Shown: one piece after another, positions 1,478-29,252 of the stretch | Position numbering within the stretch: the first letter of the stretch is position 1 | How the letters are laid out: every line of letters begins with the position of its first letter | Assembly (NCBI GenBank): GCA_020850025.1 | Contig: JADZFI010000045.1 | Span: forward strand, 1 to 29,252 | DNA length: 29,252 bases | Direction: 5' to 3' | Origin: Saprospiraceae bacterium | GTDB lineage: Bacteria; Bacteroidota; Bacteroidia; Chitinophagales; Saprospiraceae | The notes under the pieces: generated by a model | Database searches by the model: none | Told to the model about the DNA's origin: nothing | Seen by the model: the letters and a program-made list of their open reading frames with translations, nothing else | Program-made: the position numbers and the translations under genes

Positions 1478-3343
1478 ATGAGGATGTTTGCCCGAATCCG
1501 TTACGCTTGTCTTTTCTATGCCCTTTTCGTGCTTGGGTCTGCCCAGGCCCAGGTTCCCTCTGCACCGCAGGGGCTGGAGGCCGTCGGGTATGAAAAGCAT
1601 GTTGCCCTGAGCTGGAAGCCTAATACCGAAGCCAATGTCACGGGCTACAAAATTTACCGCTCTGTCAACGGGGGGGCATCCTTTGCCTTTCTTAAGCAAG
1701 TGGGCAAAGAAGCCCTGGCGGTTGACTGGACGGGCGATGAGGCGGAAGGGCTCGTAAGACACTACCGCGTTACGGCCTTTAGCGCAGCAGGTGAGAGCGG
1801 ATTTTCTACAGTAGATTCAGCTCAGTGCTTGCCCATGACCGACGAGGAACTGCTGGAAATGACTCAGCGCGCCACGTTTAGGTATTTTTGGGATTACGGT
1901 CACCCGGTGAGCGGTATGGCCCGCGAGCGCAGCAACGGAGATGCGAATATTGTGACCACGGGGGGCTCCGGTTTTGGCATCATGGCCATTCTGGTGGGCG
2001 CCGAACGCGGCTGGGTCAGCAGAACAGAAGCCTTGAACCGCCTGATACAAATAGCCTCCTTCCTGCAGTTTGCCGACCGGTTCCACGGCGTGTTCCCACA
2101 CTGGATGAACGGCACCAATGGCAATGTAATTCCATTCAGCCAGTTCGATGATGGCGGTGATTTGGTGGAAACGGCTTTTTTGATACAGGGATTATTGGCA
2201 GCTCGTCAGTATTTCAATCAGGACAACCCCCTGGAAAACGCGCTGCGCGACGTGATCACCGGTTTGTGGGAAGAAGTGGAGTGGGATTGGTATCGCAGAA
2301 ATAACAGCGGGGTACTTTACTGGCACTGGTCGCCGAACTACGGATGGCAGATGAACTTCCCTTTGCGGGGCTTCTACGAGGCACAGTTGGTGTACATTCT
2401 GGCGGCGGCTTCGCCTACGCATTCTGTGCCGGCCAGCTTGTATCAAACCGGCTGGACCTCCGGCAATTATGCCAACAACAGCACCCATTTTGGCTACAAG
2501 ATCTATTGTGGCCCGTTTGGCGGCGGTCCGCTGTTTTTTGCCCATTACTCCTACCTGGGCTTCGATCCTCGCGGGAAGCGGGATGCTTTCTGCAATTACT
2601 TTGTGCGCAACCGCAATCACTCCCTTATACAGCAGGCCTATGCGATTGCCAATCCGGAGCAGCACGCCGGATACGGTGCAGACTGTTGGGGGTTGACCTC
2701 CAGTGATGGGCCAAACGGTTATTCGGCGCACGATATCTGGCCAACCAACGATCATGGCACTATTGCTCCCACAGCTGCTCTTTCCAGTATGGCCTATACA
2801 CCGGAGGAGAGTATGGCTGCGCTGCGCCATTTCTACCGGGTGCGTGGTGAAAAACTCTGGGGCGTAGATGGTTTTTACGATGCATTTAATCTGAACCAGA
2901 ACTGGATTGCTCCTTCCTACCTGGCCATAGACCAGGGGCCTATTGTTGGCATGATAGAAAATTACCGCACGGGTTTGCTCTGGAACCTGTTCATGCAAAA
3001 TCCGGAAATCGCGCCGGCTTTGACCGCCGTCGGTTTTGTGCCCGACAACACCCCGGTTTCTGAACCGGAGGCAGATCATTCGCTTGACATAACCGTGACG
3101 CCCAACCCTGTCGTGGATGGGGTAGTGTCTTTGGACATACATTTAACTGAGGCTCAGGTGTTGAGTGCACGCTTGCGGGATGTTCGGGGTAAAATGGTGC
3201 AGGAACTTTTTTCTGCAGTGCCTTTCCCGGCAGGCGATATTCGCCAATCCTGGCCGCTAAAAGAACTCTCTTCCGGATTGTATTTCCTGGAAATCATCCA
3301 GCCCTCGGGTCGCGTTATCATACAAAAAGTGATACTCCATTAA
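1478..3343 (+). CDS. GH144-like (DUF3131/'glucoamylase' family) endo-beta-1,2-glucanase with N-terminal Fn3 domain and T9SS C-terminal sorting domain
   Basis: Signal peptide ending SAQAQ; Fn3 (PSAPQGL...LSWKPN...GYKIYRS...YRVTAF...GES); GH144 motifs GFGIMAILVGAERGW, FDDGGDLVETAFL, GGPLFFAHYSYLGFDP, WGLTSSD, YLAIDQGPIVGMIENYRTGLLW; CTD TPNP...LSSGLYFLEI...KVILH. Confidence 0.88.
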   Translation: MRMFARIRYACLFYALFVLGSAQAQVPSAPQGLEAVGYEKHVALSWKPNTEANVTGYKIYRSVNGGASFAFLKQVGKEALAVDWTGDEAEGLVRHYRVTAFSAAGESGFSTVDSAQCLPMTDEELLEMTQRATFRYFWDYGHPVSGMARERSNGDANIVTTGGSGFGIMAILVGAERGWVSRTEALNRLIQIASFLQFADRFHGVFPHWMNGTNGNVIPFSQFDDGGDLVETAFLIQGLLAARQYFNQDNPLENALRDVITGLWEEVEWDWYRRNNSGVLYWHWSPNYGWQMNFPLRGFYEAQLVYILAAASPTHSVPASLYQTGWTSGNYANNSTHFGYKIYCGPFGGGPLFFAHYSYLGFDPRGKRDAFCNYFVRNRNHSLIQQAYAIANPEQHAGYGADCWGLTSSDGPNGYSAHDIWPTNDHGTIAPTAALSSMAYTPEESMAALRHFYRVRGEKLWGVDGFYDAFNLNQNWIAPSYLAIDQGPIVGMIENYRTGLLWNLFMQNPEIAPALTAVGFVPDNTPVSEPEADHSLDITVTPNPVVDGVVSLDIHLTEAQVLSARLRDVRGKMVQELFSAVPFPAGDIRQSWPLKELSSGLYFLEIIQPSGRVIIQKVILH

Positions 3344-8926: not shown

Positions 8927-11161
8927 ATGCAATCAATCAAATCATTATCAACCACTGTAATAGTGCTGCTTTGCTGTTTAACCGGTTTGTTGGCACAGCC
9001 CTACAGGCCCTCTGCTGCCATCAATGCCCGGGTAGAAACCCTCCTTTCCAAAATGACGCTGGAGGAGAAGATCGGGCAACTCACCCTGTACACCACCGAT
9101 TGGGGAAGCACAGGCCCCACCATACGCGAGGGTTATAAGGACGATATTCGCAAGGGCGCCTGCGGGAACCTGTTCAACAGCCACTCCACGGCTTTTGTGC
9201 GCGAATTGCAAAAGGTGGCGGTGGAAGAAACACGCCTGAAAATTCCGCTGCTGTTTGGCTTTGATGTCATTCACGGCTACAAAACCATTTTCCCCATTCC
9301 CCTGGGAGAGGCTGCCAGCTGGGATCTGGAGGCTATCGAGAAATCGGCCAGGGTAGCCTCTACCGAGGCCAGTGCGGCCGGCCTCAACTGGACCTTTGCT
9401 CCGATGGTAGACATCAGCCGCGATCCGCGCTGGGGTCGCGTCATGGAAGGCGCCGGCGAGGACCCCTACCTGGGCAGTCGCATAGCCGAGGCACGCGTGA
9501 AGGGCATTCAGGGCAAAAAATTAGGCGATCCGGATGCCATGCTGGCCTGCGTGAAACACTTTGCCGGCTATGGCGCGCCCATGGGAGGCCGCGATTATAA
9601 CACGGTGGATATGAGTGAAAAGTATTTCCGGGAATTTTATTTACCGCCCTACCAGGCCGCCATCAATGCCGGTGCCGCCACGGTAATGACCTCTTTTAAC
9701 GATTACGATGGCATTCCAGCCTCCGGAAGCAAGTTTCTGCTCGATCAGATCCTGCGGAAAGAATGGGGATTTGAAGGCTTTGTGGTAACCGATTACACCA
9801 GCATCAATGAAATGGTGATGCACGGGGTGGTGGCCAACGATAAAGAGGCCGGTGAACTGGCTTTGAACGCCGGCGTGGATATGGACATGCAGGGCGGCAT
9901 TTATCAGGCCTATTTGAAAAAATCGCTGCAAGAGGGCAAAGTGACCCAGGCGCAAATTGATGAAGCCGTGCGCCGTGTGCTACGCCTGAAATTTGAACTC
10001 GGCCTGTTTGAAGATCCCTACAAGTTTTGCAATGCCGAGCGCGAAAAAAATACCCTGCTTGCGCCCGCCCACCGCGCAGCCGCACGTGAGGTGGCACGAA
10101 AATCCATTGTCTTGTTGAAAAACGACCAGGAGGTGCTTCCATTAAAACCATCACAGAAAATTGCCTTGATTGGCCCACTGGCCGATAACAAAACGGAACT
10201 CATCGGCAACTGGAACGGCGCCGGTAATTTCAATGATTGTGTCAGTCTCAAAGAAGGATTAAGTGGTGCAAACATGCAATATGCCAAAGGCTGCGAGCTG
10301 GACGGCGCCGATCGTTCCGGATTTCAGGAGGCCCTGCGCATTGCCGGACAATCAGATATTATTGTGGTGGCAGTGGGTGAAAAAGCCAATATTAGCGGAG
10401 AGGCAACTTCCAAAACACAGATCAACCTGCCTGGCGTTCAGGAGGAACTGGTGCTGGAGCTCTGCAAAACCGGCAAACCGGTGGTGGTCGTGCTGATGAA
10501 TGGTCGCCCGGTGGTGATACCGGGCATTGCCGAAAAGGCAAATGCTATTTTGGAAACCTGGTGGCTGGGCACCGAAGCCGGCAATGCCATAGCCGATGTG
10601 TTGTGGGGAAAATATAATCCTTCCGGCAAACTCCCGATGTCGTTTCCGCGCTCGGAGGGCCAGATTCCGGTGTTTTACAATGAGAAAAGCACCGGCCGCC
10701 CCTTCGACCCCAATTCCAAGTGGACCAGCAAATACATTGACGAATCAAACAGTCCGCAATGGCCCTTTGGCTACGGCCTGAGCTATACCAGCTTTGCTTA
10801 CACTACGCCCAAAGCGAGCGTTGAAACCGCCACCACTCGCGGTATTCCATCCGGTAAACAGGTGAAAGTGTGGGTGAGTGTAACCGTAAGCAATACCGGA
10901 AAAGTAGCCGGCGAAGAAGTGGTGCAGTTATATATCCGCGACCTGGTGGGCTCTACCACCCGCCCGGTGAAGGCATTAAAAGGATTCCGCAAAATCATGC
11001 TGCAACCCGGAGAAAGTCGTGAAGTCCGTTTCGACCTTACGGCCGACGACTTGAGTTTTTACCGCAGTGATAATACATTTGGCATGGAACCCGGAGAGTT
11101 CGACATCATGGTGGGCGGCAGCTCCAATGATGTGAAATCGGTGCGTATCAGAGTGAATTGA
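8927..11161 (+). CDS. bglX: GH3 beta-glucosidase (BglX type), secreted/periplasmic
   Basis: Likely start MQSIK at 8927 (GTG at 8888 is the alternative). Motifs DVIHG, RDPRWGRVMEGAGEDPYL, CVKHFAGYG, GFVVTDY (nucleophile Asp), SGEA, PFGYGLSYT and a C-terminal Fn3-like domain GEEVVQLYIRD. Confidence 0.93.
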   Translation: MQSIKSLSTTVIVLLCCLTGLLAQPYRPSAAINARVETLLSKMTLEEKIGQLTLYTTDWGSTGPTIREGYKDDIRKGACGNLFNSHSTAFVRELQKVAVEETRLKIPLLFGFDVIHGYKTIFPIPLGEAASWDLEAIEKSARVASTEASAAGLNWTFAPMVDISRDPRWGRVMEGAGEDPYLGSRIAEARVKGIQGKKLGDPDAMLACVKHFAGYGAPMGGRDYNTVDMSEKYFREFYLPPYQAAINAGAATVMTSFNDYDGIPASGSKFLLDQILRKEWGFEGFVVTDYTSINEMVMHGVVANDKEAGELALNAGVDMDMQGGIYQAYLKKSLQEGKVTQAQIDEAVRRVLRLKFELGLFEDPYKFCNAEREKNTLLAPAHRAAAREVARKSIVLLKNDQEVLPLKPSQKIALIGPLADNKTELIGNWNGAGNFNDCVSLKEGLSGANMQYAKGCELDGADRSGFQEALRIAGQSDIIVVAVGEKANISGEATSKTQINLPGVQEELVLELCKTGKPVVVVLMNGRPVVIPGIAEKANAILETWWLGTEAGNAIADVLWGKYNPSGKLPMSFPRSEGQIPVFYNEKSTGRPFDPNSKWTSKYIDESNSPQWPFGYGLSYTSFAYTTPKASVETATTRGIPSGKQVKVWVSVTVSNTGKVAGEEVVQLYIRDLVGSTTRPVKALKGFRKIMLQPGESREVRFDLTADDLSFYRSDNTFGMEPGEFDIMVGGSSNDVKSVRIRVN

Positions 11162-11284
11162 CATTGGACTGTTAGACAATGGACGATGGACTTGGGCTCG
11201 GTAAGCTTGAAATGATTATTTACCCCGAGCCCAAGTCCATCGTCCAATATCCAACAGTCCAACGTCCAACAGTCCAACGTCTAA
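11157..11284. repeat. Inverted-arm 7/8-mer array element, TGGAC family, copy A (between bglX and susC)
   Basis: Left arm ATTGACA TTGGACTG TTAGACA ATGGACG ATGGACT; right arm AGTCCAT CGTCCAA TATCCAA CAGTCCAA CGTCCAA CAGTCCAA CGTCTAA. Perfect 22-bp stem 11180-11201/11225-11246 around the core TAAGCTTGAAATGATTATTTACC. Confidence 0.92.
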
Positions 11285-11299
11285 AATTAACCATTCAAT

Positions 11300-14230
11300 A
11301 TGAAGCACTTATACAAAAAAAACTCTTTGCTTGCCTTGTTTGTGACGTTGCTTGCTGCAACCTCGTGGGCCCAGGTCAAAGTTACCGGCCGTGTGGTGGA
11401 CGAACCCGCCGGCGATGCGGTTATCGGCGCAACGGTCCGTGAAAAAGGCGCTCCCAATGGCGCCATCACCGATTATGACGGCAACTTCAGCATCACGGTG
11501 AAAGACCTCAATGCCACGCTCGTGATCAACTACACCGGCTATCTTGCTCAGGAAGTACCGCTCAATGGCAGAAGTACTGTAGAGGTAAAACTGCTGGAAG
11601 ACGATGGTATTCTGGAAGAAGTAGTGGTGGTGGGGTATGGCATTCAGCGCAAAAGCGACCTCACCGGATCGGTGGGGTCAGTGAAGGCCAAGGAGCTGGA
11701 GCGCATTCCCACGGCATCGCTGGAACAGGCGCTTCAGGGTAAAATGGCCGGCGTATACGTATCTCCCTCCAGCGGCGAGCCAGGCGCCGGCGCTGTCATC
11801 CGTATTCGCGGTACCGGTACGTTGAACAATGCCAGTCCGCTGTTTGTGGTAGACGGGATGTTGCTCGACGACATTTCCTTCCTTAACCCACAGGACGTTG
11901 CCAGCGTGGAGGTTTTGAAAGACGCCTCTTCGACGGCTATTTACGGCAACCGTGGCGCCAACGGGGTAATCATCATTACCACCAAACGTGGTCTTACGGA
12001 TACCAAAGCATCGGTTACGCTCAATTCCTATTATGGTACCCAGCAGATTGCCAGAAAACTGCCCCTGGCCAATGCTTCCCAGTTCGCGGAGATGTACAAC
12101 GAGCTCAAGGGCAATAATTTTTATCCCGATCCGGCGGCGCTGGGAACGGGCACAGACTGGCAGGATGTCATTTTCCGCGATGCCCCCATGGCCAGTGTGC
12201 AATTGGGCGTAGGCGGTATCTGGAAGAAAATCAACTACAACGTTTCCGGAAACCTCTTCGATCAGCAAGGTATTATGGAGGAAACCGGATTCCGCCGTTA
12301 CACCGGACGCCTGAATGCAGAATATCCGGTGTTGAAAACCCTTCGGGTTGGAACCAACCTGGCTTATTCCAACAGCAAATTCAATACCGTTGGCGGCGGC
12401 GTTCTGGGAGGAATGTACCGCATGCCTCCTGTCTTTGGCGAGCGCGACAGCACCGGCAAGTTCACCGATCCAACCTTTTTCGGACAGTCGATCGGTAATC
12501 CTGCCGCTGATTTGTTTTACAAAAATGATCAGCACACACGGTCCAATCGCTGGGTAGGTACTGTTTATGCCAACTGGACCTTCCTGAAGTATTTCACCTT
12601 CCGCACCAATTATGGTTTCGACAGCCGAAAGGATTATTTTTATGGCTTTGAACCCATCTTTATGGTGTCGTCTTCCCAGTTGAACAACCTGGAGCGCACT
12701 TCCAGAGATTCGTCCAGGTTCCAAAACTGGCTCTGGGAAAACACCCTCACTTACGACCGCAGTTGGGAAGATTTTCGTTTGAATGTACTGGCCGGGCAAA
12801 CGGCGCAGGAGTTTACCTTTAAGAAGCGCCGTACCATTAATAATGTTCTTCAGCCCAATGGGGAAGAGTTTAGCGACTGGGCCATGCTCAGCTATCTGGG
12901 TCGGGTAAATGCTACCTTCTTCGACCGTTATCTGCTTACGGCTTCTTTGCGCGCGGATGGCTCCTCCCGTTTCAACAAAAACAACCGCTGGGGCTATTTC
13001 CCTTCCGTTGCGGCCGGCTGGAATATTTCGCAGGAACCCTTTATGCGCGGGTTCAAACTGTTTGACCGCCTGAAATTGCGCGCCTCCTGGGGGGTAACCG
13101 GTAACGACAAAATCCAGAACTATCCATCGCTCGGTATCATCACGCCGGAGCTGTATGGGGCATTCAATGATACCATACAATCCGGCGCCACGCTTACCAA
13201 TTACGCCAATGCCGATGTTCGCTGGGAAACTACCGAGCAAACAGATATTGGTTTGGAGTTTGGCCTGTTTAAAGGCCGCTTTACAGCAGAGATTGACTGG
13301 TTCAGGAGGTTTACGTATGATATTTTGGGCGATTTGCCCATTCCGGACGATGTGGGCTCCGGCAGCAATCCGTTTGTGAATGCAGCACAAGTAGAGAACA
13401 TAGGCTGGGACTTTACAGTGAACTGGCGCGAAGTGAAGCGCAAGTTTTCCTACAATCTGGGTATAAACGTTTCTCCCATTCAAAACAAAGTGCTCAAACT
13501 GAACGACGGAAAATCTGAAATCTTTGAGGCACGCACTGCCCAGGGCGACTTCGCCACGCGGACGGTAGTGGGGCAGCCTATTGGCGCTTTCTACGGATAT
13601 CAGGTAGCCGGTGTGTTCCAGAACCAGGAAGAAATAGACAGCTCCCCAAATTTCGGCAACGAGCAGCCGGGCGATTTTCGTTTTGCCGACCTGAATGGCG
13701 ATGGAGTGCTCTCGGCCGACGACCGTACGTACCTGGGCAGCCCGATTCCTACCCTGATCTACGGCTTTAACGCCGGATTTGAGGTCTCCGGGTTTGATGT
13801 GGCTTTTGATTTCTTCGGTGTGGAGGGCAACAAGGTGGTGAATGCCAAGGCAGTGGCCCGTTTTGATACGCCCAACTGGGAAGCCCTCTGGTACGAGAAC
13901 CGCTGGACCGGAGAAGGCGCCAGTAATTCCGTTCCGCGGGTTACCAATGGTGGACACAACTACAGAATGTCGGACTTCTTGGTGGAAGACGGCGGCTTTT
14001 TCCGTCTGCGCAGCGTGGTGCTGGGATATACCCTGCCTAAAAAATGGCTGAGTGCAGCGGGCATCAAGGCAGCCAGACTGTATGCCAGCGGCACTAATTT
14101 GTGGACCAAACAGGCATATTCAGGCTTCACGCCGGAATTCCCCAACGACAGCGTGTTCCGAGCCGGGATGGACTACCTGAACTATCCAATGGCAAGAACA
14201 GTGTTATTTGGTTTGAACGTAACCTTCTAA
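11300..14230 (+). CDS. susC: SusC/RagA family TonB-dependent outer-membrane transporter
   Basis: Signal peptide; N-terminal carboxypeptidase-regulatory-like domain; plug motifs EEVVVVGYG, DLTGSV, PLFVVDG, LKDASSTAIYGNRGANGVIIITTKRG; ends GLNVTF; immediately followed by a SusD gene. Confidence 0.96.
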   Translation: MKHLYKKNSLLALFVTLLAATSWAQVKVTGRVVDEPAGDAVIGATVREKGAPNGAITDYDGNFSITVKDLNATLVINYTGYLAQEVPLNGRSTVEVKLLEDDGILEEVVVVGYGIQRKSDLTGSVGSVKAKELERIPTASLEQALQGKMAGVYVSPSSGEPGAGAVIRIRGTGTLNNASPLFVVDGMLLDDISFLNPQDVASVEVLKDASSTAIYGNRGANGVIIITTKRGLTDTKASVTLNSYYGTQQIARKLPLANASQFAEMYNELKGNNFYPDPAALGTGTDWQDVIFRDAPMASVQLGVGGIWKKINYNVSGNLFDQQGIMEETGFRRYTGRLNAEYPVLKTLRVGTNLAYSNSKFNTVGGGVLGGMYRMPPVFGERDSTGKFTDPTFFGQSIGNPAADLFYKNDQHTRSNRWVGTVYANWTFLKYFTFRTNYGFDSRKDYFYGFEPIFMVSSSQLNNLERTSRDSSRFQNWLWENTLTYDRSWEDFRLNVLAGQTAQEFTFKKRRTINNVLQPNGEEFSDWAMLSYLGRVNATFFDRYLLTASLRADGSSRFNKNNRWGYFPSVAAGWNISQEPFMRGFKLFDRLKLRASWGVTGNDKIQNYPSLGIITPELYGAFNDTIQSGATLTNYANADVRWETTEQTDIGLEFGLFKGRFTAEIDWFRRFTYDILGDLPIPDDVGSGSNPFVNAAQVENIGWDFTVNWREVKRKFSYNLGINVSPIQNKVLKLNDGKSEIFEARTAQGDFATRTVVGQPIGAFYGYQVAGVFQNQEEIDSSPNFGNEQPGDFRFADLNGDGVLSADDRTYLGSPIPTLIYGFNAGFEVSGFDVAFDFFGVEGNKVVNAKAVARFDTPNWEALWYENRWTGEGASNSVPRVTNGGHNYRMSDFLVEDGGFFRLRSVVLGYTLPKKWLSAAGIKAARLYASGTNLWTKQAYSGFTPEFPNDSVFRAGMDYLNYPMARTVLFGLNVTF

Positions 14231-14343
14231 TTGGACGTTGGACTGTTGGACGATGGACGTTGGACTTTTGCTCGTTAAGCTTGAGATGATCATTTACCCC
14301 GCGCCCAAATCCAACGTCCATTGTCCAACTGTCCAACGTCCAT
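14231..14343. repeat. Inverted-arm 7/8-mer array element, TGGAC family, copy B (between susC and susD)
   Basis: Begins at the base after the susC TAA: TTGGACG TTGGACTG TTGGACG ATGGACG TTGGACT; core TAAGCTTGAGATGATCATTTACCCCGCGCCC; right arm AATCCAA CGTCCAT TGTCCAA CTGTCCAA CGTCCAT. Same core and orientation as copy A. Confidence 0.92.
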
Positions 14344-14371
14344 CATCTATAAATTGTAAACGATCAGGCTT

Positions 14372-17376: not shown

Positions 17377-17671
17377 GTGTAGGAAGCATTTGTTGTGAAT
17401 ACGGTGTGGTCGTTCAGCGACAAAATCAGTACGTTGGTCTATGCCGAACATTTTCATGCAGCCTTCCTGTAACATGCAGCTCTTTGCCAGAGTCTGATTT
17501 GGCAGAGTTGAATTTTGATGGGGTTCAGAGGTGCAGCAGCAGAAGGCTTTTCCGTTCATCCTGAAAAAATGGCCTTTCATACATGAGAACTGGGTATTGG
17601 TAGGTTCTATGTTTTGCAAGTTACCGAAAGACTTCATCTTTGTATCGAAAACAAAAACACCCCTGCTATTT

Positions 17672-17714
17672 CTGGACATTGGACGTTGGATTTTTAGACG
17701 TTGGACATTGACGG
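17672..17714 (+). repeat. Orphan TGGAC-family array arm upstream of the TonB-dependent receptor gene
   Basis: CTGGACA TTGGACG TTGGATTT TTAGACG TTGGACA TTGACGG; no complementary arm seen nearby. Confidence 0.8.
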
Positions 17715-17748
17715 AGATTCGCGTTCGGCAGGGACAACTAATTAAGCT

Positions 17749-20214
17749 ATGAAATCAAATTACTTTCTGCCACTGGTGGTGGTAGTGCTCACCTCTTTGG
17801 GGGTTTCGGCACAAAAAATTGCCGGAACCGTGCTGGAAGCCAGTGGCCAGCCTGCCGGATATGCTACTGTGACCCTCCATCAGGTAACTGATTCCGTGCT
17901 GGTTAAAGGCGCCATCACCGGCGACGACGGGTCTTTTGAAATTCAGGGCGCTGCCGTCGGAAGATACTTTCTAAAAGCCAACCTTATGGGCGCCGGCGGT
18001 GAATCTACACCTGCTTTTGACTATGATGGCGGAAATAAGACCATAGAAGCCATTTCTCTCCGGTCTGATGAAAATAAATTGGCTGAAGTTACGGTCGTTG
18101 CCCGCAAACCTCCGGTAGAAGTAAAAGCCGACAAAACCATTCTCAATGTAGAAGGTACGGTCAATTCCACTGGTTTGAATGCCCTGGAATTGCTCCGTAA
18201 AGCGCCGGGCGTTACCGTTGATAACAATGAAAATGTAAGTGTCCGTGGTAAAAATGCCGTGAAAATCATGATCGACGGCCGGGATGTGCCGCTCGACGGT
18301 AAAGAGCTGGCGGCATTGCTGAAAGGCACTCAGGCTTCAGATATTGCCAATATCGAGATCATTTCCAACCCCTCTGCCAAATATGATGCAGCCGGTAATG
18401 CCGGGATCATCAATATCCGGATGAAGAAAAACAAGGCTTTCGGCACCAATGGCAACTTCGGGCTGGAAGGTATCTATGGCGAAACTTTTAAAGCCGGCGG
18501 CAACGTCAGCCTGAACCACCGGGCAAAGAAATTCAATGCCTTCGGGAGTTTTAATGCACACCATGGCGACTGGCACAACACCCAATACTTCCATCGGGAA
18601 CAATATCTGGATGACTTGCGGTCCGATGGACAGCAGGGAGAGGACTGGCGGGTATTTGAACAGAGCAACAAAGAATACAGCGAAAACAGATACCGGGGGT
18701 ATCGCGCCGGTGTAGACTGGTTCCTTAACAGCAAACACACGGCGGGGGTACTGGTAAACGGCAGCATGAACCCGGGAGGCTGGCACTCCAGCAGCATAAC
18801 AAAGATAAGCGATCTGCACAGCATTAACAGGATAGATTCATTGCTGGTGGCCACCAACGACATGGAAAACGACCGGAATGACCTGAACATTAACCTGAAC
18901 TATCGCTTTGCCGATACTGCCGGCCATACCCTGAATATTGACCTGGATAAGGGCTCTTATCGCATTCGCGGCGCCAGTTTCCAGCCCAACTATTACCGCT
19001 CTGCCGACAACTCCGAAATCCTGCGCGAGGCCATTTACCGAAATAGCACACCCACCGACATCAACATCATGACAGCGCGGGTGGATTACGAGCAGAAACT
19101 TTGGAAGGGTACGCTGGGCCTGGGTGGCAAGATTTCGGATGTGGAAACCTTCAACACCTTTGATTTTTTCAATGTGCAAAACGGCATTCCGGTGAAAAAC
19201 GAAACCCAGAGCAACTCTGTGGATTACAAAGAACGAACCAATGCGGCTTATATCAACTATAACCGGGCATTTGGTAAAAAATGGAACATTCAGGCCGGAT
19301 TGCGACTGGAAAACACAGATTACAAGGGTATAGGGAAGGATTCTGTGTTCACCAACAACTACACGGAGTTGTTCCCGAGTGCAGCTGTAACCTATTCCAT
19401 CAACAAAAAACTGGGTTTGAATGCTACCTACAGCCGTCGTATTGACCGGCCGAGTTACCAGGATTTGAATCCGTTTGAAAACAAGTTGGATGAACTGACC
19501 TACCAAAAAGGCAATCCCATGTTGTTGCCGCAGTTCACCAACTCTATCGAACTCAGCCCTACGTTTAACGGATTCCCGGTGCTTACCATCGGGTATAGCC
19601 ATACCAACGATGTATTCACCCAAATCCTGAAACGAGATGTTCGCGACACCCGGGCCACCTTCATGACACAGGAGAATCTGGCAGACCAGAGAAACTGGAC
19701 CATCAGCCTGAACGCCCCAACCCCAATAGCCAAATGGTGGGATGGCTTTGTGAGCATCACCGCATTCCGCAGCCATTTCCGGGCCGATTTCAGCACGCCG
19801 GAAACCCCGGATTTTGTGGTGGATCAGGCGTATAATGCCTTCAATGCCTTCGCGGAACAAAACATAAAGCTGCCCAAAGGCTTTGGCCTGCAAATTTCAG
19901 GCTGGTACAACAGCCGCGCTTTCTGGGGCACGCTGCGCAGCAAACCACAAGGCGCTATGGACATCGGCTTGCGCAAGAAAGTGCTGCACGACAAAGGCGA
20001 ACTGCGCTTGCGCGTAGGCGATGTGCTCGGAACAGCAGGCTGGGGAGGCGAAAACCTGTTCAGTCCCGGACTCAAAATGCTGGCCAACGGCACATGGGAA
20101 AGTCAAACGGTAACCCTCAATTTCTCCTACCGTTTCGGCTCCACCGAGGTAAAAGACGCCCGCCAGCGCAAAACAGGCCTCGAAGACGAGAAGAACAGAG
20201 TGAAAGGAAAGTAA
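17749..20214 (+). CDS. TonB-dependent receptor (outer-membrane beta-barrel family) with N-terminal carboxypeptidase-regulatory-like domain
   Basis: Signal peptide; LAEVTVVARKPPVEVKADK, LELLRKAPGVTVD, IMIDGR, IEIISNPSAKYDAAG..GIINI, QAGLRLENT, YSRRIDRPSYQDLNPF, GNP.L.PQFT, TLNFSYRFG. Confidence 0.9.
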   Translation: MKSNYFLPLVVVVLTSLGVSAQKIAGTVLEASGQPAGYATVTLHQVTDSVLVKGAITGDDGSFEIQGAAVGRYFLKANLMGAGGESTPAFDYDGGNKTIEAISLRSDENKLAEVTVVARKPPVEVKADKTILNVEGTVNSTGLNALELLRKAPGVTVDNNENVSVRGKNAVKIMIDGRDVPLDGKELAALLKGTQASDIANIEIISNPSAKYDAAGNAGIINIRMKKNKAFGTNGNFGLEGIYGETFKAGGNVSLNHRAKKFNAFGSFNAHHGDWHNTQYFHREQYLDDLRSDGQQGEDWRVFEQSNKEYSENRYRGYRAGVDWFLNSKHTAGVLVNGSMNPGGWHSSSITKISDLHSINRIDSLLVATNDMENDRNDLNINLNYRFADTAGHTLNIDLDKGSYRIRGASFQPNYYRSADNSEILREAIYRNSTPTDINIMTARVDYEQKLWKGTLGLGGKISDVETFNTFDFFNVQNGIPVKNETQSNSVDYKERTNAAYINYNRAFGKKWNIQAGLRLENTDYKGIGKDSVFTNNYTELFPSAAVTYSINKKLGLNATYSRRIDRPSYQDLNPFENKLDELTYQKGNPMLLPQFTNSIELSPTFNGFPVLTIGYSHTNDVFTQILKRDVRDTRATFMTQENLADQRNWTISLNAPTPIAKWWDGFVSITAFRSHFRADFSTPETPDFVVDQAYNAFNAFAEQNIKLPKGFGLQISGWYNSRAFWGTLRSKPQGAMDIGLRKKVLHDKGELRLRVGDVLGTAGWGGENLFSPGLKMLANGTWESQTVTLNFSYRFGSTEVKDARQRKTGLEDEKNRVKGK

Positions 20215-20356
20215 GTGTTTGAGTTTACGAGTGTTCGAGTGTTCGGGTTGGCGCTCGGCTTGGTAGTTCAAGGAGTCTTTGCAAAAAGGCGTCAGCCTTA
20301 GAAAATACCAGGCCGAACGCCAACTCAAACACTCGAACACCCAAATACTCGAACAC
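20215..20356. repeat. Inverted-arm octamer array element (GTGTTYGR family) directly after the receptor stop codon
   Basis: GTGTTTGA GTTTACGA GTGTTCGA GTGTTCGG + inner arm GTTGGCGCTCGGCTTGGTA (20247-20265); 40-nt loop; inner arm TACCAGGCCGAACGCCAAC (20306-20324; 17/19 Watson-Crick complementary) + TCAAACAC TCGAACAC CCAAATAC TCGAACAC. Confidence 0.92.
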
Positions 20357-20399
20357 TTTTCAAGATAATGAAAGTTTGATTTGGTTTATCGGAGAAAGT

Positions 20400-23037: not shown

Positions 23038-23064
23038 AAAAATGAGCTTATGTCGGATTTGCGG

Positions 23065-23172
23065 CTTACGGTAGACGGTGTATCCCGGAACTCCGTTCCG
23101 GGCAAACTAGCAGGGTCCGTCCACTGTAAGCCGTCCACCGTAAGCCGTCCACCGTCTACCGTTCATCGTTCA
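23065..23172. repeat. Inverted-arm NNNACGG heptamer element overlapping the 3' end of the adenylate cyclase gene
   Basis: Plus-strand arm CTTACGG TAGACGG (23065-23078); core with hairpin CCCGGAAC-TCC-GTTCCGGG; eight complementary units 23117-23172 that read TGAACGA TGAACGG TAGACGG TGGACGG CTTACGG TGGACGG CTTACAG TGGACGG on the minus strand. Confidence 0.9.
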
Positions 23173-25543
23173 CAATGAAATACATATCCACCTGTCCTTT
23201 GTTGTGTACGTCTTTTTGGCCGCGGTGTTCTGCTTTGTACAGGTGTTTGACAGCTTCTGCGGTGGCGTTGGAAATATTTACCCGCCCGGGTTCGCCGTGT
23301 TCTTCGAGGCGGGCTGCCAGGGTAACGGCATCTCCCCAGATATCGTAGGCGAACTTGTTTTTGCCAATTACACCAGCCATTACAGGGCCGGTGTGTATGC
23401 CGATGCGCATTTCGGTCAGGAAGGAGTCCGGGTTGGCCTCGCGACGATTTTTCAGCCATTCCGACATTTCAAGGGCGGCGCGTACGGCATCTGCGGCGTG
23501 GGTATCGTTGGGGATGGGCAGCCCTCCGGCACACATATAGGCGTCGCCGATGGTTTTGATCTTTTCCAGCCCATGGCGTTCGCATATTTCATCGAAAGCC
23601 AGGAAACATTCGTTGAGCTCGTCAATCAATTGTTCTGGAGTTAGTCGGGCAGATAAACTTGTGAAATTGACAAAATCACTGAACAGTACGGTGGCAGCAG
23701 GGTAAAAGCGCGGGGTGGCTTGTCCGCTGGTTTTAAGCTCGGCGGCAACCTCTTCCGGCAGGATATTGCGCAACAGGCTGTCGCTTTTCCGTTTTTCCTC
23801 TTCGATTTGGCGTTTTTGGGCCTGAATTTGCCGATTCTGACTTTCCACGCGGCGTTTGGCTCTGCGGGTAAACCACCAGGAAATACCTACCACTATAAGG
23901 AATAGTAACAGGGCTAATCCAAGAATATAGGCAAAGCGGCGGAAGCTGGCTTCCTGCTCGGTTTGGTAGGCTTGTTCCCTTTGGATGCGTTCCAGTTCCT
24001 GGGAGCGTCGTGTACTGTCGGCCTGGTTTTGGGCTCGTTCAATTTGTTCTTTTTCCCGCAGTTCAAGAATTACCCGGCTTTGTTTTTCGGCATTCAACTG
24101 CTCAGCTGCCAGTCGTAGCTGGGCTCGTGCCTGTAGCGCCTGCAGGGTTTGCTCCCGCAGTTTGGCCTGGTCGGCATCTTTTTGCGCTTCAAGCAGCCGC
24201 ACTTCGTCCTCCTTGCGTCGCGCTTCGAGCTCCAGATTTTTGTTTTGAAGTTCAAGTCGTTCCCTTTCAAATTTGACCTGATTCAATTCAAGGTCTTTAA
24301 AGTTTTGCCGGGCAATTAAAAACTTGATTTGTCCTTCGGCCGCAGAAAGCAGGGCGCGCTGTTGCGTCAAGCGTTGCTCCCGGCTCATGTCTTCCTGGCG
24401 TATTTCGTCCAGGACATTCAAATACGCCTGATAATATTCAAACGCTTTTTCGAAGTCATAAAGGTCGTGGTACAAATCAGCGCCAGTGCGGTAAGCCTCT
24501 GCAAGCACTTGTTTCTGTTTGGTATCTTTGGCGTATTGAATGGCTAGCTGGTTGTGGGAGAGGGCATTGTATATGTCGTTACTACTAAAATACACTGAGG
24601 CAAGGAGGTGTTCCAGATTGGCCAGGGAGGTGTAGTCTTTTCTGGATGCCAGCAGTTTCTGGGCTTTGAGCAGGTATTCAATGCCGCGTTTTGTTTCGCC
24701 GGTATTGTGAAGGGCTATGCCCATATTGGCCCATAAAACTTCCGGATAATCACAGGGGATATAGCTGCATTGCATCTCGGATTTCCGGAAATATTCCAGC
24801 GCCTTTGGGTAGTCTTTTAAACTGGCATATTGTCGGCCGAGGTTGTTGTAAAGAACTGACTGCTCCTGGGTGGTGCCGGAGGTTTCAATAATATCCTGGA
24901 GCAACAAATAGTAGTACAGACTTTTGCCGGCATCCCCGGCGATATCGTACGCTCTGGCGCGTTTCTGGTAGATTTGAACCAAACGCGGATTGTTTCTCTG
25001 CTCTTTGAATTTGGAGATCAGCCCCTTGTAAAGGATTTCCGCACTGTCGAAGCGCATGTCGTACAAACAGGCATCTGCAGCTTTTTCCCTTGTCTCGTCA
25101 TCTTCAGGCTTTAAGGCCAGCACATCCCGGTAATATCTGTGGGCTGCGGTGTACAATTTTTCCCCGAAGAACAGGTCGCCAATAGCGGTTTTGACGGTCA
25201 ATTGCATGGCAGTATTGCCGGAATTTTCCAGTTTGGCTTCGGCCTCCAGATAGTATTGAAGCGCCTCCTGCGGCCTGCCGGTGCGGGCACACACTTCGCC
25301 AATCATGACAAATGCGCGCACAATACCGCCATCATATCGCAAACTACGGGCCATGGAGAGACTGCGCTGAGCCAGGCTTTCCCGTTGAGAATCGCTGTGG
25401 GTGCGACGAGCCTGCTCCAAAACCTCATCCACCTCTGCCGTAATACGCTCAATATCTTCCGGCGTTTGGGCAAAAGCGGTAAAGGGGATGCTCCATAAAA
25501 GGCAATATGCCAGAGCAATTCTCGCTATAAGGAGTGGATTCAC
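23156..25543 (-). CDS. Class III adenylate/guanylate cyclase with N-terminal extracytoplasmic TPR region, coiled coil and single TM helix
   Basis: Signal peptide; TPR-like helices (LYNNLGRQYASLKDYPKALEYF); TM FAYILGLALLLFLIVVGISWWF; SDSLLRNILP; LFSDFVNFT; LEKIKTIGDAYM; RIGIHTGPVMAGVIG.NKFAYDIWGDAVTLAARLE. Confidence 0.92.
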   Translation of the reverse strand: MNPLLIARIALAYCLLWSIPFTAFAQTPEDIERITAEVDEVLEQARRTHSDSQRESLAQRSLSMARSLRYDGGIVRAFVMIGEVCARTGRPQEALQYYLEAEAKLENSGNTAMQLTVKTAIGDLFFGEKLYTAAHRYYRDVLALKPEDDETREKAADACLYDMRFDSAEILYKGLISKFKEQRNNPRLVQIYQKRARAYDIAGDAGKSLYYYLLLQDIIETSGTTQEQSVLYNNLGRQYASLKDYPKALEYFRKSEMQCSYIPCDYPEVLWANMGIALHNTGETKRGIEYLLKAQKLLASRKDYTSLANLEHLLASVYFSSNDIYNALSHNQLAIQYAKDTKQKQVLAEAYRTGADLYHDLYDFEKAFEYYQAYLNVLDEIRQEDMSREQRLTQQRALLSAAEGQIKFLIARQNFKDLELNQVKFERERLELQNKNLELEARRKEDEVRLLEAQKDADQAKLREQTLQALQARAQLRLAAEQLNAEKQSRVILELREKEQIERAQNQADSTRRSQELERIQREQAYQTEQEASFRRFAYILGLALLLFLIVVGISWWFTRRAKRRVESQNRQIQAQKRQIEEEKRKSDSLLRNILPEEVAAELKTSGQATPRFYPAATVLFSDFVNFTSLSARLTPEQLIDELNECFLAFDEICERHGLEKIKTIGDAYMCAGGLPIPNDTHAADAVRAALEMSEWLKNRREANPDSFLTEMRIGIHTGPVMAGVIGKNKFAYDIWGDAVTLAARLEEHGEPGRVNISNATAEAVKHLYKAEHRGQKDVHNKGQVDMYFIVNDER

Positions 25544-25566
25544 AACGCGAAGAAAAGGAATTTTTA

Positions 25567-25594
25567 CTTACGACTTACGATGTACGACTTACGA
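25567..25594 (+). repeat. Left heptamer arm of the four-helix-bundle cassette
   Basis: CTTACGA CTTACGA TGTACGA CTTACGA. Confidence 0.9.
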
Positions 25595-25601
25595 TTGGGG
25601 T

Positions 25602-25633
25602 GTTGCTTATTCCAGGGTTTTGGAATAACTTTG
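25602..25633 (+). promoter_or_regulatory. Candidate Bacteroidota sigma-70 promoter inside the cassette
   Basis: GTTG (25602-25605), 20-nt spacer, TAACTTTG (25626-25633), matching TTTG-N19-21-TAnnTTTG; ATG 21 nt downstream. An overlapping inverted repeat TTATTCCA-N6-TGGAATAA lies at 25607-25628. Confidence 0.6.
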
Positions 25634-25654
25634 GAAAATATTCAATTTATCCAA

Positions 25655-26050
25655 ATGAAAGAAGATCAGTGGAATCACAGATCCAAGCATTTTGCCTTGG
25701 CGGTTATTGAATTGGTAAGGCAATTTCCCAAAGATCCAGCTTATTGGACCATAGGCAGACAACTAATAGATGCTGCAACTTCCGCTGCAGCTAACTACAG
25801 GGCAATTAAGAGAGCCAAGTCTACTAAAGACTTTATCAACAAGCTTAAAATTGTTGAAGAGGAACTAGACGAAAGTATGTTCTGGTTGGAACTTACTGTA
25901 GGGGTTTCCACAGAGTGGAGAACTTCAGTTGCCCCGATTTATAAAGAGGCCAATGAGCTCTTAAGCATCACCATAGCCTCCATTAAGACCTCCCGTAACA
26001 AACAGAATAATGTACCAGGTACATCGTACATCGTAAGTCGTCCGTCGTAA
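25655..26050 (+). CDS. Four-helix-bundle protein (TIGR02436 / 23S rRNA IVS-protein / bAvd-like family)
   Basis: Likely start MKEDQ at 25655; the track ATG at 25580 lies inside the repeat arm. Family motifs RSKHFALAVIELVRQFP, IGRQLIDAATSAAANYRA..RAKS.KDFINKLKIVEEELDESMFWLEL, EANELLSI.IASIKT. Confidence 0.9.
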   Translation: MKEDQWNHRSKHFALAVIELVRQFPKDPAYWTIGRQLIDAATSAAANYRAIKRAKSTKDFINKLKIVEEELDESMFWLELTVGVSTEWRTSVAPIYKEANELLSITIASIKTSRNKQNNVPGTSYIVSRPS

Positions 26051-26065
26051 GTCGTCCGTCGTTAC
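26024..26065 (-). repeat. Right heptamer arm of the four-helix-bundle cassette
   Basis: Plus strand TCGTACA TCGTAAG TCGTCCG TCGTAAG TCGTCCG TCGTTAC, the reverse complement of left-arm-type units. It contains the stop codons of both adjacent genes (26048-26050 and 26062-26064). Confidence 0.9.
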
Positions 26066-27588
26066 TTTCCATTCCAGATCCTCATCTGAAGCGATTGCAA
26101 CACCATATCCCAAAGAACTTCGTAGGGGACAATTTCAATTTCATGAGCCTGGCTGGCTGAGTCGAGAGGTACCGTTCTGAGCTGCTTGTAATATCGTTCT
26201 GCTTTTCTGCTGGAGGCTTCCCGGTGGAAATTGGCCTGTGGCACCTGAAGCAGCATTTTGATGAAGCAATTGCTTCGGAAGGTGGCATCGCCTTTCAGGT
26301 AACGGCTGCAGTATTTTTCGATGCCTTCAATTCGTTCGGAGGATTTTTTGTAATCTTTTTCTGCAATAGCGTACAGGATTTGAGCAATGAGAACACTGAT
26401 ATTCATTCCGCTGCGGTCTTTGGCGAACAAGTTGATTTCGTTGATGAACTTGCCCATCTTGAACCGCCTTGATCGTTCGCTGAGGATATTATCCGGTATT
26501 TTGCCTATTTTTATCAGGTAGAAGATGTAAGCCTGGAAGATGCGCCACATTTCAACAATCTGGATTTGCTTCTCCTCAAATTTCGGGTAATTGGTTACCT
26601 TCTCATGCAGATGGTAGGCTTCCTCCCAGTGTTGGGTGCGCATGGCTAGCAGGAAAAACAATTCCTGTAATTTGAACCAGTTAAAGGAGCCTTCCTCAAA
26701 GAAGTATTCGCAACGCTCAATGGCTTTTTGCCCTTTCTCGAATTCGCCCAGCTGGAGGTAGCAAACAATCAGGTTGTAGTAAAAAACCTGTAGTGGCAAA
26801 CCGCTGTCGTAATCCTTTTTGTCAAAAAAGGCAATGGCTTCCTCACAAAGTTTGGCGGTATTGACGTAATCGTTGATGCTGTTGTAGATCAGCAAGTGCA
26901 CCATTCGGCCGAAAAGATGCAGTTTGAAGGAAGAACAGACGGCCATGAATGGCTTTAGCTCTGCATAAAACTCCTCCGCCTGCTGGGTTACTTCTTCTTT
27001 GGTGGCTTTGCTGTTGGTGTATTGCGCCATCAGTTCAGAGTAAAAAAACTCCGCCTTGCTTTCCATTTGCCAAATCTTCTCGTATTCGACATACTGCGCT
27101 TTAACCTCCTCATATTTGTCGAGATCACCGTCAACTGTGCTGTATTGTAGCCGTAAAACCCTCAGGATATCCAGAGTAAGCTCCGTAAATTCAAAATGCT
27201 TGGCATGCCTGAGCAAACGTTCCAGCACATCAATGCCGGTGATTTTGGCATTCCGTATCAGCAGGGTCATGGCTGCCGACCACTTTTTGTAACACTCAAA
27301 AAATGCTTTTTGCCGGTTGGTAAAGTTGGCGTCCTTAAAATCCAGCAGGAAAATGGCGTCGAGGAGTCGTTCCTTCAACTTATTTTTCAAGCTGGTAAGG
27401 TTCACATCGTCGCCGCCGCTTTTTTTGAACAAAGCTTTGGCATCTTCGTCCGTTTCTATTTTTTTATCAAGTAGGGCGTTAAAAAGGACCTCCATCTTTG
27501 AGTCAGGCTCAATGATGAATTTCAAAATTCCGCTTCCTTTTAACTTGGTCTTATTGACCAATCCCACAAGTTCCACGAGATCACGCAT
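26062..27588 (-). CDS. Hypothetical cytoplasmic all-alpha protein with TPR-like helices
   Basis: Long ORF with normal protein composition, likely start MRDLVE at 27588 (track start 27624); no signal peptide or TM; TPR-like FYYNLIVCYLQLGEFEKGQKAIERC. Confidence 0.8.
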   Translation of the reverse strand: MRDLVELVGLVNKTKLKGSGILKFIIEPDSKMEVLFNALLDKKIETDEDAKALFKKSGGDDVNLTSLKNKLKERLLDAIFLLDFKDANFTNRQKAFFECYKKWSAAMTLLIRNAKITGIDVLERLLRHAKHFEFTELTLDILRVLRLQYSTVDGDLDKYEEVKAQYVEYEKIWQMESKAEFFYSELMAQYTNSKATKEEVTQQAEEFYAELKPFMAVCSSFKLHLFGRMVHLLIYNSINDYVNTAKLCEEAIAFFDKKDYDSGLPLQVFYYNLIVCYLQLGEFEKGQKAIERCEYFFEEGSFNWFKLQELFFLLAMRTQHWEEAYHLHEKVTNYPKFEEKQIQIVEMWRIFQAYIFYLIKIGKIPDNILSERSRRFKMGKFINEINLFAKDRSGMNISVLIAQILYAIAEKDYKKSSERIEGIEKYCSRYLKGDATFRSNCFIKMLLQVPQANFHREASSRKAERYYKQLRTVPLDSASQAHEIEIVPYEVLWDMVLQSLQMRIWNGK

Positions 27589-27833
27589 AGGCCTGGAGTA
27601 ATTGATTATAAACAAATAAGGCACAAAGAGGTGGCTGTTGCTGTGTTTGTTGTTTCAGCATCAGGAACCTTGTTGGGCCCAGTGGACCCTAAATCGGATG
27701 GGAATAAAAAACGGGGTGAAGAAGAAAACGGGAATTTAAAAGGTTGCTCTTTTCCGTTTCATCATACTACCGAAGGCCGGATTAAAATGCATACGGGATG
27801 CAATAAAAAGTTCGGATTATGTAAATCTAGCCA

Positions 27834-29143: not shown

Positions 29144-29151
29144 GATTGAGA

Positions 29152-29200
29152 GTGTTTGAGTGTTTGGGTGTTTGAGTGTTCGAGTTGGCGTTCGGCTGGG
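29152..29200 (+). repeat. Second octamer-family arm, just upstream of the DUF1501 start
   Basis: GTGTTTGA GTGTTTGG GTGTTTGA GTGTTCGA followed by GTTGGCGTTCGGC, which matches the inner arm of the element at 20215-20356. Confidence 0.88.
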
Positions 29201-29252
29201 CATTTGGGGTAGTCATGAAATAAACTAACCTGTTTCACAAAGGGCGTAAGCA

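Follow-up and report, generated by a model that had tools for sequence, protein, structure and literature searches.

Anatomy of the locus

The window, i.e., the entire stretch of 29,252 nt of DNA that was analyzed, is derived from contig C45 of a metagenome-assembled genome of the Saprospiraceae (G000; 76% complete, 531 contigs). The same sequence is encountered in public sequencing runs, mostly in metagenomes from activated sludge, sludge, and bioreactors. Two genes on the minus strand of the window are separated by a putative insertion cassette, which comprises a small gene in opposite orientation and the inverted arrays of tandem heptamers (arms) on either side of it. The locus has the following features.

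23156–25543, minus strand: downstream host gene, encoding a protein with TPR and adenylate/guanylate cyclase domains
25564–25569, no strand: left copy of the 6-nt direct repeat TTACTT, which brackets the insert and has one copy in the empty allele of G064
25566–25595, no strand: left arm, four tandem heptamers (CTTACGA, CTTACGA, TGTACGA, CTTACGA; phase ACTTACG/ATGTACG)
25568–26065 (~498 nt), between the two minus-strand genes: putative insertion cassette, gene plus inverted heptamer arrays
25596–25654, plus strand: 5′ part of the loop, which holds a candidate promoter of the Bacteroidota type
25603–25605 (TTG) and 25626–25633 (TAACTTTG), plus strand: candidate promoter with a 20-nt spacer, 22 nt before the ATG
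25655–26050, plus strand: gene of a four-helix-bundle protein of 131 aa (TIGR02436 / PF05635), assigned by profile scores and orthologs
26019–26062, no strand: right arm, ~6 tandem heptamers (TCGTACA/TCGTAAG/TCGTCCG)
26062–26067, no strand: right copy of TTACTT; its first three positions (26062–26064) form the TAA with which the 520-aa gene ends on the minus strand
26062–27624, minus strand: upstream host gene, encoding a hypothetical protein of 520 aa that matches no family

The original prediction of a TIGR02436-type gene of 131 aa lying antisense between two minus-strand genes is borne out by the profile scores of its product (64.3 bits with TIGR02436, cut-off 24; 42.9 bits with PF05635, cut-off 33.8) and by the identity of the flanks, which are the cyclase gene and the 520-aa gene. 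The named proteins nearest to the 131-aa protein are from Saprospiraceae MAGs. The arms also agree with the predicted layout of CTTACGA/TGTACGA units on the left, their reverse complements on the right, and a loop of ~430 nt: the best inverted match comprises 26 nt with 92% identity and 434 nt in between, and the right arm is built from the reverse complements of the left-arm units and the variant TCGTCCG. The arms pair as a stem of ~26 bp that closes the minimum-energy RNA fold on both strands, with z-scores of the arm-paired fold of −7.1 on the minus strand, which is the sense strand of the host genes, and −4.9 on the plus strand. The predicted enrichment in AT is evident relative to the cyclase gene (GC content of 0.40–0.43 in the insert versus ~0.50), but the insert differs only slightly from the 520-aa gene (~0.45).

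The right arm extends outwards to the stop of the 520-aa gene (26062–26064) and also encodes the end of the 131-aa ORF (~10 codons plus the stop), so that the C-terminal tails of the orthologs differ. A TAnnTTTG-like box is present also upstream of the gene in the orthologs L190 and L191. Because the strict TAnnTTTG motif occurs at 8 of 51 loci (16%), compared with 5.8% in shuffled sequences, the promoter is considered a candidate only. No sigma-70-type site was found upstream of the gene; the sole match (25983–26011) falls inside the coding sequence. A search of the window for Rfam families, including rRNA, yielded no match, and neither a transposase nor a recombinase is encoded in or beside the cassette, whose sole ORF is that of the four-helix protein.

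Presence and absence of the cassette at orthologous junctions

Orthologs of the 520-aa gene were found in 60 of the 60 genomes of the genus that were searched. The idea of a cassette implies the existence of empty-site alleles at the junction of the hypothetical gene and the cyclase gene, and such alleles occur in two relatives. In G064, the closest sampled relative with the junction (93% identity of the neighboring gene), the cyclase gene starts ~20 nt past the upstream stop codon, and the intervening ~20 nt contain no repeat; in other relatives, the distance is roughly 40–115 nt. The junction of G072 is likewise without an element. Elsewhere, the junction harbors hairpins of other units, namely TTGGACT in G060 and GGTTTGA in G004. 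Where the neighboring gene is different, the same spot is occupied by a third kind of hairpin (G006) or carries no element (G043).

The junction of G044 contains a gene-less hairpin, which consists of the units TACGACT TGCGAAG TACGATT TACGAGG, a 9-nt loop, and the respective complements; the unit type is that of the cassette arms in the window. This empty hairpin, found in a sister clade, is explained equally well by a hairpin that was already there, by a separate insertion into a hot spot, or by loss of the gene.

The closest homologs of the window protein (90%, 84%, and 82% identity; 82–92% over the orthologs at the junction) stem from other assemblies and are all located at the same junction. 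Two of these junction orthologs have readable DNA, and both possess TTACGA-type arms that differ in the number of units, with variants present in both arms; in L190, for example, TTGGGAC in the left arm is matched by GTCCCAA in the right. Units have been gained or lost in the orthologs, and the changes are mirrored in both arms. Conservation of the gene at this locus without arms, which would have spoken against a cassette, is thus not observed; the relatives that have the gene there also have the arms. In the tree of the neighboring gene, the three loaded genomes form a cluster (support 79/82), the empty G064 is adjacent to it, and G044 falls into the sister clade. The same cassette is found at the same junction in independent assemblies of JGI and NCBI, and contigs from four other runs cover an arm together with the gene; the contigs of the public runs, which were kept as assembled contigs only, break at the arms. 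The comparison of these sequences indicates that the cassette was inserted once at this junction and was then inherited in at least three lineages.

The insert begins immediately after the TAA stop codon of the upstream 520-aa gene, and its ends are defined by terminal inverted repeats and by a presence/absence polymorphism with precise boundaries. The empty allele of G064 has a single TTACTT, compared with two around the insert, and the repeat may represent a 6-nt target-site duplication or microhomology; because the motif overlaps the unit of the arm itself, the repeat is possibly a coincidence or the result of microhomology. At a second hairpin of the window (position 14231), the flanking repeat amounts to at most four nucleotides (TCTA). 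A joint of 25595 to 26019 was rejected as an empty allele of the cassette since it derives from other empty hairpins (three mismatches, 25-nt side).

Arms around other members of the gene family

Arms were detected by a score for inverted matches between the flanks of a gene, with 1500 random segments of 315 nt and 1975 crudely called genes of G000 as controls; the assemblies compared are draft metagenome bins. All four TIGR02436 genes of G000 are armed (scores of 20–37, with the window gene at 20), and each has arms of a different unit (GACGGTN, GTGTTTTG, GAGTACAT, and CTTACGA) that also constitutes an abundant family of arrays in the same genome. A score of at least 13 was reached by 0.27% of the random segments, and a score of at least 20 by 1.0% of the crude genes, with the four TIGR02436 genes all among them.

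Of 31 related genomes, 25 possess the family, with inverted arrays of 7–8-mers at nearly every locus fetched, and nearly all family loci in relatives of the same order have arms. Inverted arrays of short units surround the gene also on plasmids of Cyanobacteria (Planktothrix, Gloeocapsa, Nostoc, Anabaena, and Pseudanabaena) and Chloroflexota (Chlorohelix), where they were recognized at seven of eight loci by eye and at six of eight by score. Arms around TIGR02436 / PF05635 genes therefore occur in three phyla. The expectation that other family members would have flanking arrays thus proved correct for all four genes of G000 and for 50 of the 58 loci with readable flanks on both sides, as compared with 0.27–1.8% of the controls. 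A chance origin of the arms was rejected on the basis of these frequencies (4/4 paralogs and 50/58 loci versus ~1% of other genes).

Among 1208 pairs of non-syntenic loci, the proportion with related arms increases from 1% at less than 35% protein identity over 3% and 15% to 26% at 65% identity or more, and this rise of arm similarity with protein identity is significant in a permutation test (p = 0.002). A homolog with 73% identity to the window protein (L192), situated in a different context, has the related arm units GTACGAG/GTGCGAA. In many pairs of ~70% protein identity, one or two positions of the unit are changed across the whole array, a pattern that indicates concerted evolution. Gene and arms appear to travel jointly, though loosely, as judged from the similarity of arms among non-syntenic homologs.

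Loaded, deleted, and empty cassettes

G000 contains about 480 (strict) to 710 arrays of 6–9-nt units in 3.4 Mb but only four TIGR02436 genes; because contigs are broken by arrays, these array counts are lower bounds. Most arrays are intergenic; of their ends next to a stop codon, 35% are no more than 3 nt away from it. There are 61 pairs of neighboring arrays that constitute inverted hairpins, with loops of 2–270 nt, and some hairpins are nested within the loops of others. A near-identical second copy of the window gene was not found, and a six-frame HMM search detected no gene remnants in other loops of G000.

Within the window, the hairpins at positions 14231 and 17668 have precise ends and are missing from G064 and G043, and the sites at 11231, 20214, and 23117 are occupied in G064 or G060 by a hairpin that is different, nested, or has a longer loop. 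Copies of several window hairpins are dispersed through the relatives.

The relationship between loaded and empty forms is most evident in the case of the GAGTACAT cassette, which is present in full between genes A and B of G000. Behind gene B of this genome lies an empty hairpin that agrees with the cassette in its arms and its inner 3′ segment. In G064, it is the site after gene B that carries a full GAGTACAT-armed cassette, and the copy at the A/B site retains an arm, the leader, ~125 nt from the start of the gene (almost the same sequence as in the full version), and the final ~50 nt. At a second site, the gene of G064 is shortened by an in-frame deletion to 67 aa, and the one of G043 is complete (122 aa). 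A third site has a full cassette in G000, a single arm of the same unit in G064, and a vestige of two units in G006 and G043. Since full and deleted copies share the arms, the 5′ leader, and the inner 3′ segment, the gene was copied together with its arms, and the empty hairpins at these sites stem from loaded copies. At least a part of the gene-less hairpins thus go back to cassettes that lost the gene by internal deletion. The original prediction had interpreted the window cassette as the loaded form of an array element, which is in good agreement both with these sister cassettes (full, deleted, or empty, with the same arms and at the same or neighboring sites) and with the presence of at least 53 other arrays in G000 that share the unit mix of its arms.

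Loops of this kind are also occupied by members of other families, such as PDDEXK_3 and AAA_14/DUF4143, and the genes situated between inverted arrays of the same family include the housekeeping genes purE, lepB, and rsgA.

Array density and gene number

Across 20 related genomes, represented by samples of 40–200 kb from each of 19 relatives and by the whole of G000, the density of arrays is correlated with the number of TIGR02436 genes (Spearman rho = 0.83), a value that is based on small samples of related genomes and is uncorrected for phylogeny. The density amounts to 0–18 arrays per Mb in the seven genomes without the gene and to 0–165 in the 13 genomes that possess it. The partial correlation is 0.67 after accounting for genome size and likewise 0.67 after accounting for the number of Y1 transposases. 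If the empty hairpins are the debris of cassettes, however, such a correlation would arise without any activity of the protein.

Array density also tracks the numbers of PDDEXK_3 genes (rho = 0.77) and Y1 transposases (rho = 0.70), again uncorrected for kinship. A role of the Y1 (RAYT) transposase as mobilizer is not supported, because its correlation with array density drops to 0.34 when the count of four-helix genes is held constant, and because Y1 is missing from G017, G067, and G021, three genomes with four-helix genes; the locus checked in G017 (L025) is armed. Y1 transposases are absent from three array-free genomes. Similarly, PDDEXK_3 is not supported as mobilizer, as it is present in the array-free genomes G003, G010, and G051. 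No match to a reverse transcriptase (RVT_1) was obtained in the whole assembly of G000 and none in the array-rich genomes G043 and G022, and a telomerase-like or other reverse-transcriptase-based origin of the arrays was rejected for this reason.

The four-helix protein

A family profile of 23 sequences, headed by the window protein, matches the structures 2RLD (E = 3e-36) and 2GSC (E = 4e-28), each of which was deposited in the PDB with five chains. No catalytic activity is known for the four-helix fold. The motif GxxRxxxSxxxNxxE is given for this family by Zhang et al. (2014, PMC3936711). In the window protein, Q36, S43, and N47 are present, but R is replaced by D39 and E by A50, and close orthologs possess the same variant.

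The identity of the gene with its orthologs is 74–79% at the DNA level, slightly below that of the flanks (76–90%), and is distributed very unevenly over the codon positions, with 0.47–0.50 at the third position versus 0.87–0.93 at the first and second positions. This difference indicates that the protein has been retained by strong purifying selection since the insertion of the cassette.

Origin and spread of the cassette

Taken together, the evidence favors an IVS-like insertion cassette (IVS, intervening sequence), i.e., a PF05635 gene within inverted heptamer arrays that was inserted once behind the stop codon of a host gene; we assign this explanation a probability of about 0.62. The cassette gene may be read from its own (candidate) promoter. 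In the minus-strand transcript of the host genes, the arms should fold into the ~26-bp stem and loop out the insert, and RNase III would probably cut the stem, by analogy with the intervening sequences of rRNA. Such a cut would allow the insert to be tolerated between co-transcribed genes. The RNase III gene (rnc) is present in all five near-complete relatives (5/5) and was not found in the 76%-complete assembly of G000. In single-stranded DNA, the same hairpin would favor precise loss, conversion from arm to arm, and recombination between elements with like arms. In arm mismatches generally, G:U pairs are about equally frequent on the two strands relative to the gene (68 versus 67, no bias), so that RNA is not singled out over DNA as the level of selection. 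Within the genus, cassettes are copied to neighboring sites and lose their gene by internal deletion, giving rise to at least some of the empty hairpins.

The alternative that survives best, though we regard it as unlikely, reverses this order: array hairpins arise or insert on their own behind stop codons, small selfish genes land in their loops later, and the gene is a passenger. It would explain why the junction carries hairpins of four different units in four species, and G044 one with units of the same type and no gene, why hairpins are nested in the loops of others and are occupied by other gene families, why 35% of the array ends lie no more than 3 nt from a stop codon, and why 480–710 arrays contrast with only four TIGR02436 genes. 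A passenger would not be expected, however, to share its arms, 5′ leader, and inner 3′ segment with its deleted copies, nor should homologous genes at non-syntenic sites tend towards common arm units, and the arms around members of one gene family in three phyla likewise speak against later landings.

A partnership resembling that of RAYTs and REPs, in which the four-helix protein makes, spreads, or protects the arrays in trans and its gene lies between copies of its own substrate, is improbable. It is in line with the correlation of array density and gene count and its persistence after accounting for genome size and Y1 number, the low array density in genomes without the gene, the four paralogs of G000 with four units that each form an abundant family, the purifying selection on the protein, and the five chains in both PDB relatives. 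However, the correlation is uncorrected for phylogeny and is paralleled by those of PDDEXK_3 and Y1, and would be expected also from cassette debris. Moreover, the arms diverge rapidly between proteins of ~70% identity, the most abundant unit families lack a cognate gene in the (incomplete) assembly of G000, and the four-helix fold offers no known catalytic activity. The broader notion that TIGR02436 genes and heptamer hairpins together form a single self-propagating system, with the loaded copies as autonomous elements whose protein acts in trans on its own unit and the empty copies as non-autonomous derivatives, appears similarly doubtful; if it were true, the intervening sequences of 23S rRNA would be just one landing site of such a system, and it would explain why tandem heptamers are in excess in Bacteroidota and Cyanobacteria. 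Finally, a gene that fell between two arrays by chance or a misjoining of repeats by the assembler is most improbable despite the ~1% of crude genes between inverted arrays of the same family and the contigs that break at the arms, given the arms at 4/4 paralogs and 50/58 loci, the recovery of the cassette at the same junction in independent assemblies, and the contigs of four other runs that span arm and gene.

The insertion cassette has consequences beyond the locus, because its different states (element absent, arms alone, gene with internal deletion, and complete gene) can be aligned among relatives, and because the number of TIGR02436 genes predicts the number of repeat hairpins in a genome. 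The notion of a “selfish element” becomes testable with respect to the cutting of the stem by RNase III in mRNA, the binding of the protein, and the dependence of empty hairpins on a loaded copy. For annotation, it is relevant that such inserts sit inside operons, that arms supply C-terminal codons and stop codons, and that metagenome assemblies are broken by them.

Comparison with known systems

Avd (bAvd), the accessory protein of diversity-generating retroelements, was named in the original prediction as a related protein, and one TIGR02436 gene of G065 is located 2.4 kb from a reverse transcriptase. The window gene, by contrast, has neither an adjacent reverse transcriptase nor a pair of template and variable repeats, and an interpretation of the cassette as a diversity-generating retroelement with Avd was rejected because reverse transcriptases are lacking in G000 as well as in the array-rich G043 and G022.

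The REPIN/RAYT system shares with the cassette a single-copy gene flanked by an inverted short repeat that is also dispersed as gene-less hairpins. The window protein differs from RAYTs in being a small helical bundle, for which neither nuclease nor transposase activity is known, and the arms consist of tandem arrays with a unit that changes from one copy to the next. The resemblance is thus one of layout only. G000 also possesses RAYT-like Y1 genes with REP-like repeats of their own (contigs C254 and C409).

Intergenic tandem heptamers (STRR) are described as abundant in Cyanobacteria and some Bacteroidota and as unexplained in two reports (MacGregor 2015, PMC4679880; PMC4692102). The arrays in the former enclose no gene, and the terms “four helix” and “intervening sequence” do not occur in its text, whereas the arrays in the window form an inverted pair around a four-helix gene. 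Genes of the same family (23S_rRNA_IVP) inside cas loci are treated as possibly cas-associated in function in the relevant passages of Zhang et al. (2014, PMC3936711). Like the window gene, they are wedged between the genes of unrelated operons, but these passages are silent on flanking inverted arrays. Among the loci compared here, the family gene lies between cas2 and cas1 in Anabaena, upstream of cas1 in Pseudanabaena, and between the genes of DUF1156 and Swt1-HEPN proteins in Gloeocapsa and Chlorohelix.

A search of the literature for arms around PF05635 members outside of rRNA yielded no report, the nearest being that of Warrier et al. (2016, PMC4990558) on the S23p intervening sequence of Coxiella burnetii, where a PF05635 ORF lies in the loop of a stem formed by terminal inverted repeats. 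The 5′ arm of the Coxiella element contains two to three copies of the heptamer GACAGAT, whose number varies among strains; RNase III was shown to cut at the first heptamer of the 28-bp stem; and the ORF was reported to be probably unexpressed and decaying (PMC4990558). The intervening sequence of Leptospira also bears an ORF (Ralph & McClelland 1993, as cited in the text of PMC4990558). The window cassette agrees with these 23S rRNA elements in having a PF05635 gene in the loop of a stem of terminal inverted repeats with tandem heptamers in an arm, and a selfish or mobile nature has been proposed for both. Unlike the Coxiella element, both of its arms consist wholly of heptamer arrays, its gene is under purifying selection, and hairpins of the same units but without a gene number in the hundreds in its genome. 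How intervening sequences in rRNA arose and spread has been in question since about 1990, and the locus and its relatives tie this question, the function of the ORF, and the excess of heptamers together in a single genus. The cassette is situated outside of rRNA, in antisense orientation between two protein-coding genes; it has the design of an ORF-bearing 23S rRNA intervening sequence yet departs from the location in rRNA by which these elements are defined.

Array hairpins in close relatives

Close relatives differ in the other hairpins (inverted array pairs) of the window.

Other hairpins of the window
11150-11290, hairpin
14225-14345, hairpin
17660-17715, hairpin
20205-20360, hairpin
23060-23175, hairpin

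In the related genomes G064 and G043, the hairpins at 14231 and 17668 are missing with precise ends. At site 20214, the loop in G064 holds a second, nested array hairpin with CACTAAG units, and G060 has a hairpin with a different unit. Hairpins with GACGGT arms and long, nested loops are present in G064 at sites 11231 and 23117.

The contig of the window stops within an octamer array (GAGTGTTT...GTTGGCG; 29150-29252). A TIGR02436 gene of G044 (C228:4604-4921) is located approximately 130 nt past the last aligned position (approximately 29143 of the window), and another cassette may mark the point at the contig end where the assembly broke. The hypothetical 520-aa gene adjoining the window's cassette has an in-frame stop near codon 9 in its orthologs of G006, G043, and G064 (window 27589-27624). 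Because the conserved sequence begins only at MRDLVELV (residue 13), the true start of the gene is probably the ATG at 27586-27588 and not the GTG at 27624.

Genes enclosed by inverted arrays

The four-helix cassette type of the window, here with ATTTTAG-type arms, is located between genes encoding DUF1156 and Swt1-family HEPN proteins on plasmids of Gloeocapsa and Chlorohelix (L084 and L085), which belong to two different phyla. Other plasmid cassettes are placed between cas2 and cas1 (L089, Anabaena) or adjoin cas1 (L088, Pseudanabaena); the plasmid inserts travel with defence operons. In G043 (L178; C17:73296-75508), a stretch recurs after the cassette that comprises the 3'-terminal approximately 40 nt of the gene upstream, the left arm, and the beginning of the four-helix gene. 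Either the cassette was duplicated in tandem, or the repeat is an artefact of assembly at the end of the contig.

A second cargo class of inverted arrays consists of PDDEXK_3 genes (PF13366; C206 of G000 and loci L237-L248), which are flanked by inverted arrays on both sides at 10 of the 12 loci in the genus. A common core (CRCAGAGTT / CACAGATT) unites their array units and varies much less than do the arms around four-helix genes. PDDEXK_3 genes also occur in the array-free genomes G003, G010, and G051. The AAA_14 + DUF4143 gene is bracketed by arrays at 1578-1605 and 3226-3260 of its contig, whose xTRCGA units belong to a unit family shared with the window's cassette.

Enclosed genes in the genome of the window (G000)
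C206:2248-2628 (L063:449-826), PDDEXK_3 gene, 126 aa
C290:1830-2993 (L194:434-1594), minus strand, AAA_14 + DUF4143 ATPase gene, 387 aa

Handedness and other repeat families

Inverted array pairs show a preferred handedness throughout G000: most pairs, on either strand, have a G/T-rich 5' arm and a C/A-rich 3' arm (e.g., TTGGACG...CGTCCAA and GTGTTTTG...CAAAACAC). The handedness is reversed in the AATGTCC...TTGGACA family and the Planktothrix cassette.

At least 10 copies of a MITE-like family with AATGTCC arrays are present in G000. The inner stem is conserved (CCAAGTG..GCGGGCGCCTGGC / GCCAGGCGCC..CACTTGG), and the central loop of approximately 60 nt, which has the same length in nine of ten copies, is hardly alignable from copy to copy.

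MITE-like copies in G000 (with five others)
C268:1402-1569
C329:8317-8497
C28:3514-3681
C368:1116-1297
C77:3434-3629

Y1 transposase genes in G000
C254:4383-4844, IS200-like
C409:11654-12160, IS200-like
C400:10767-11105, third Y1 gene

Inverted REP-like repeats (GCCGCATCGCGGCAAAACATCGGTAGC...) lie on either side of the Y1 genes at C254 and C409. These repeats form a class separate from the heptamer arrays; both genes show the classical layout of RAYT/REP systems.
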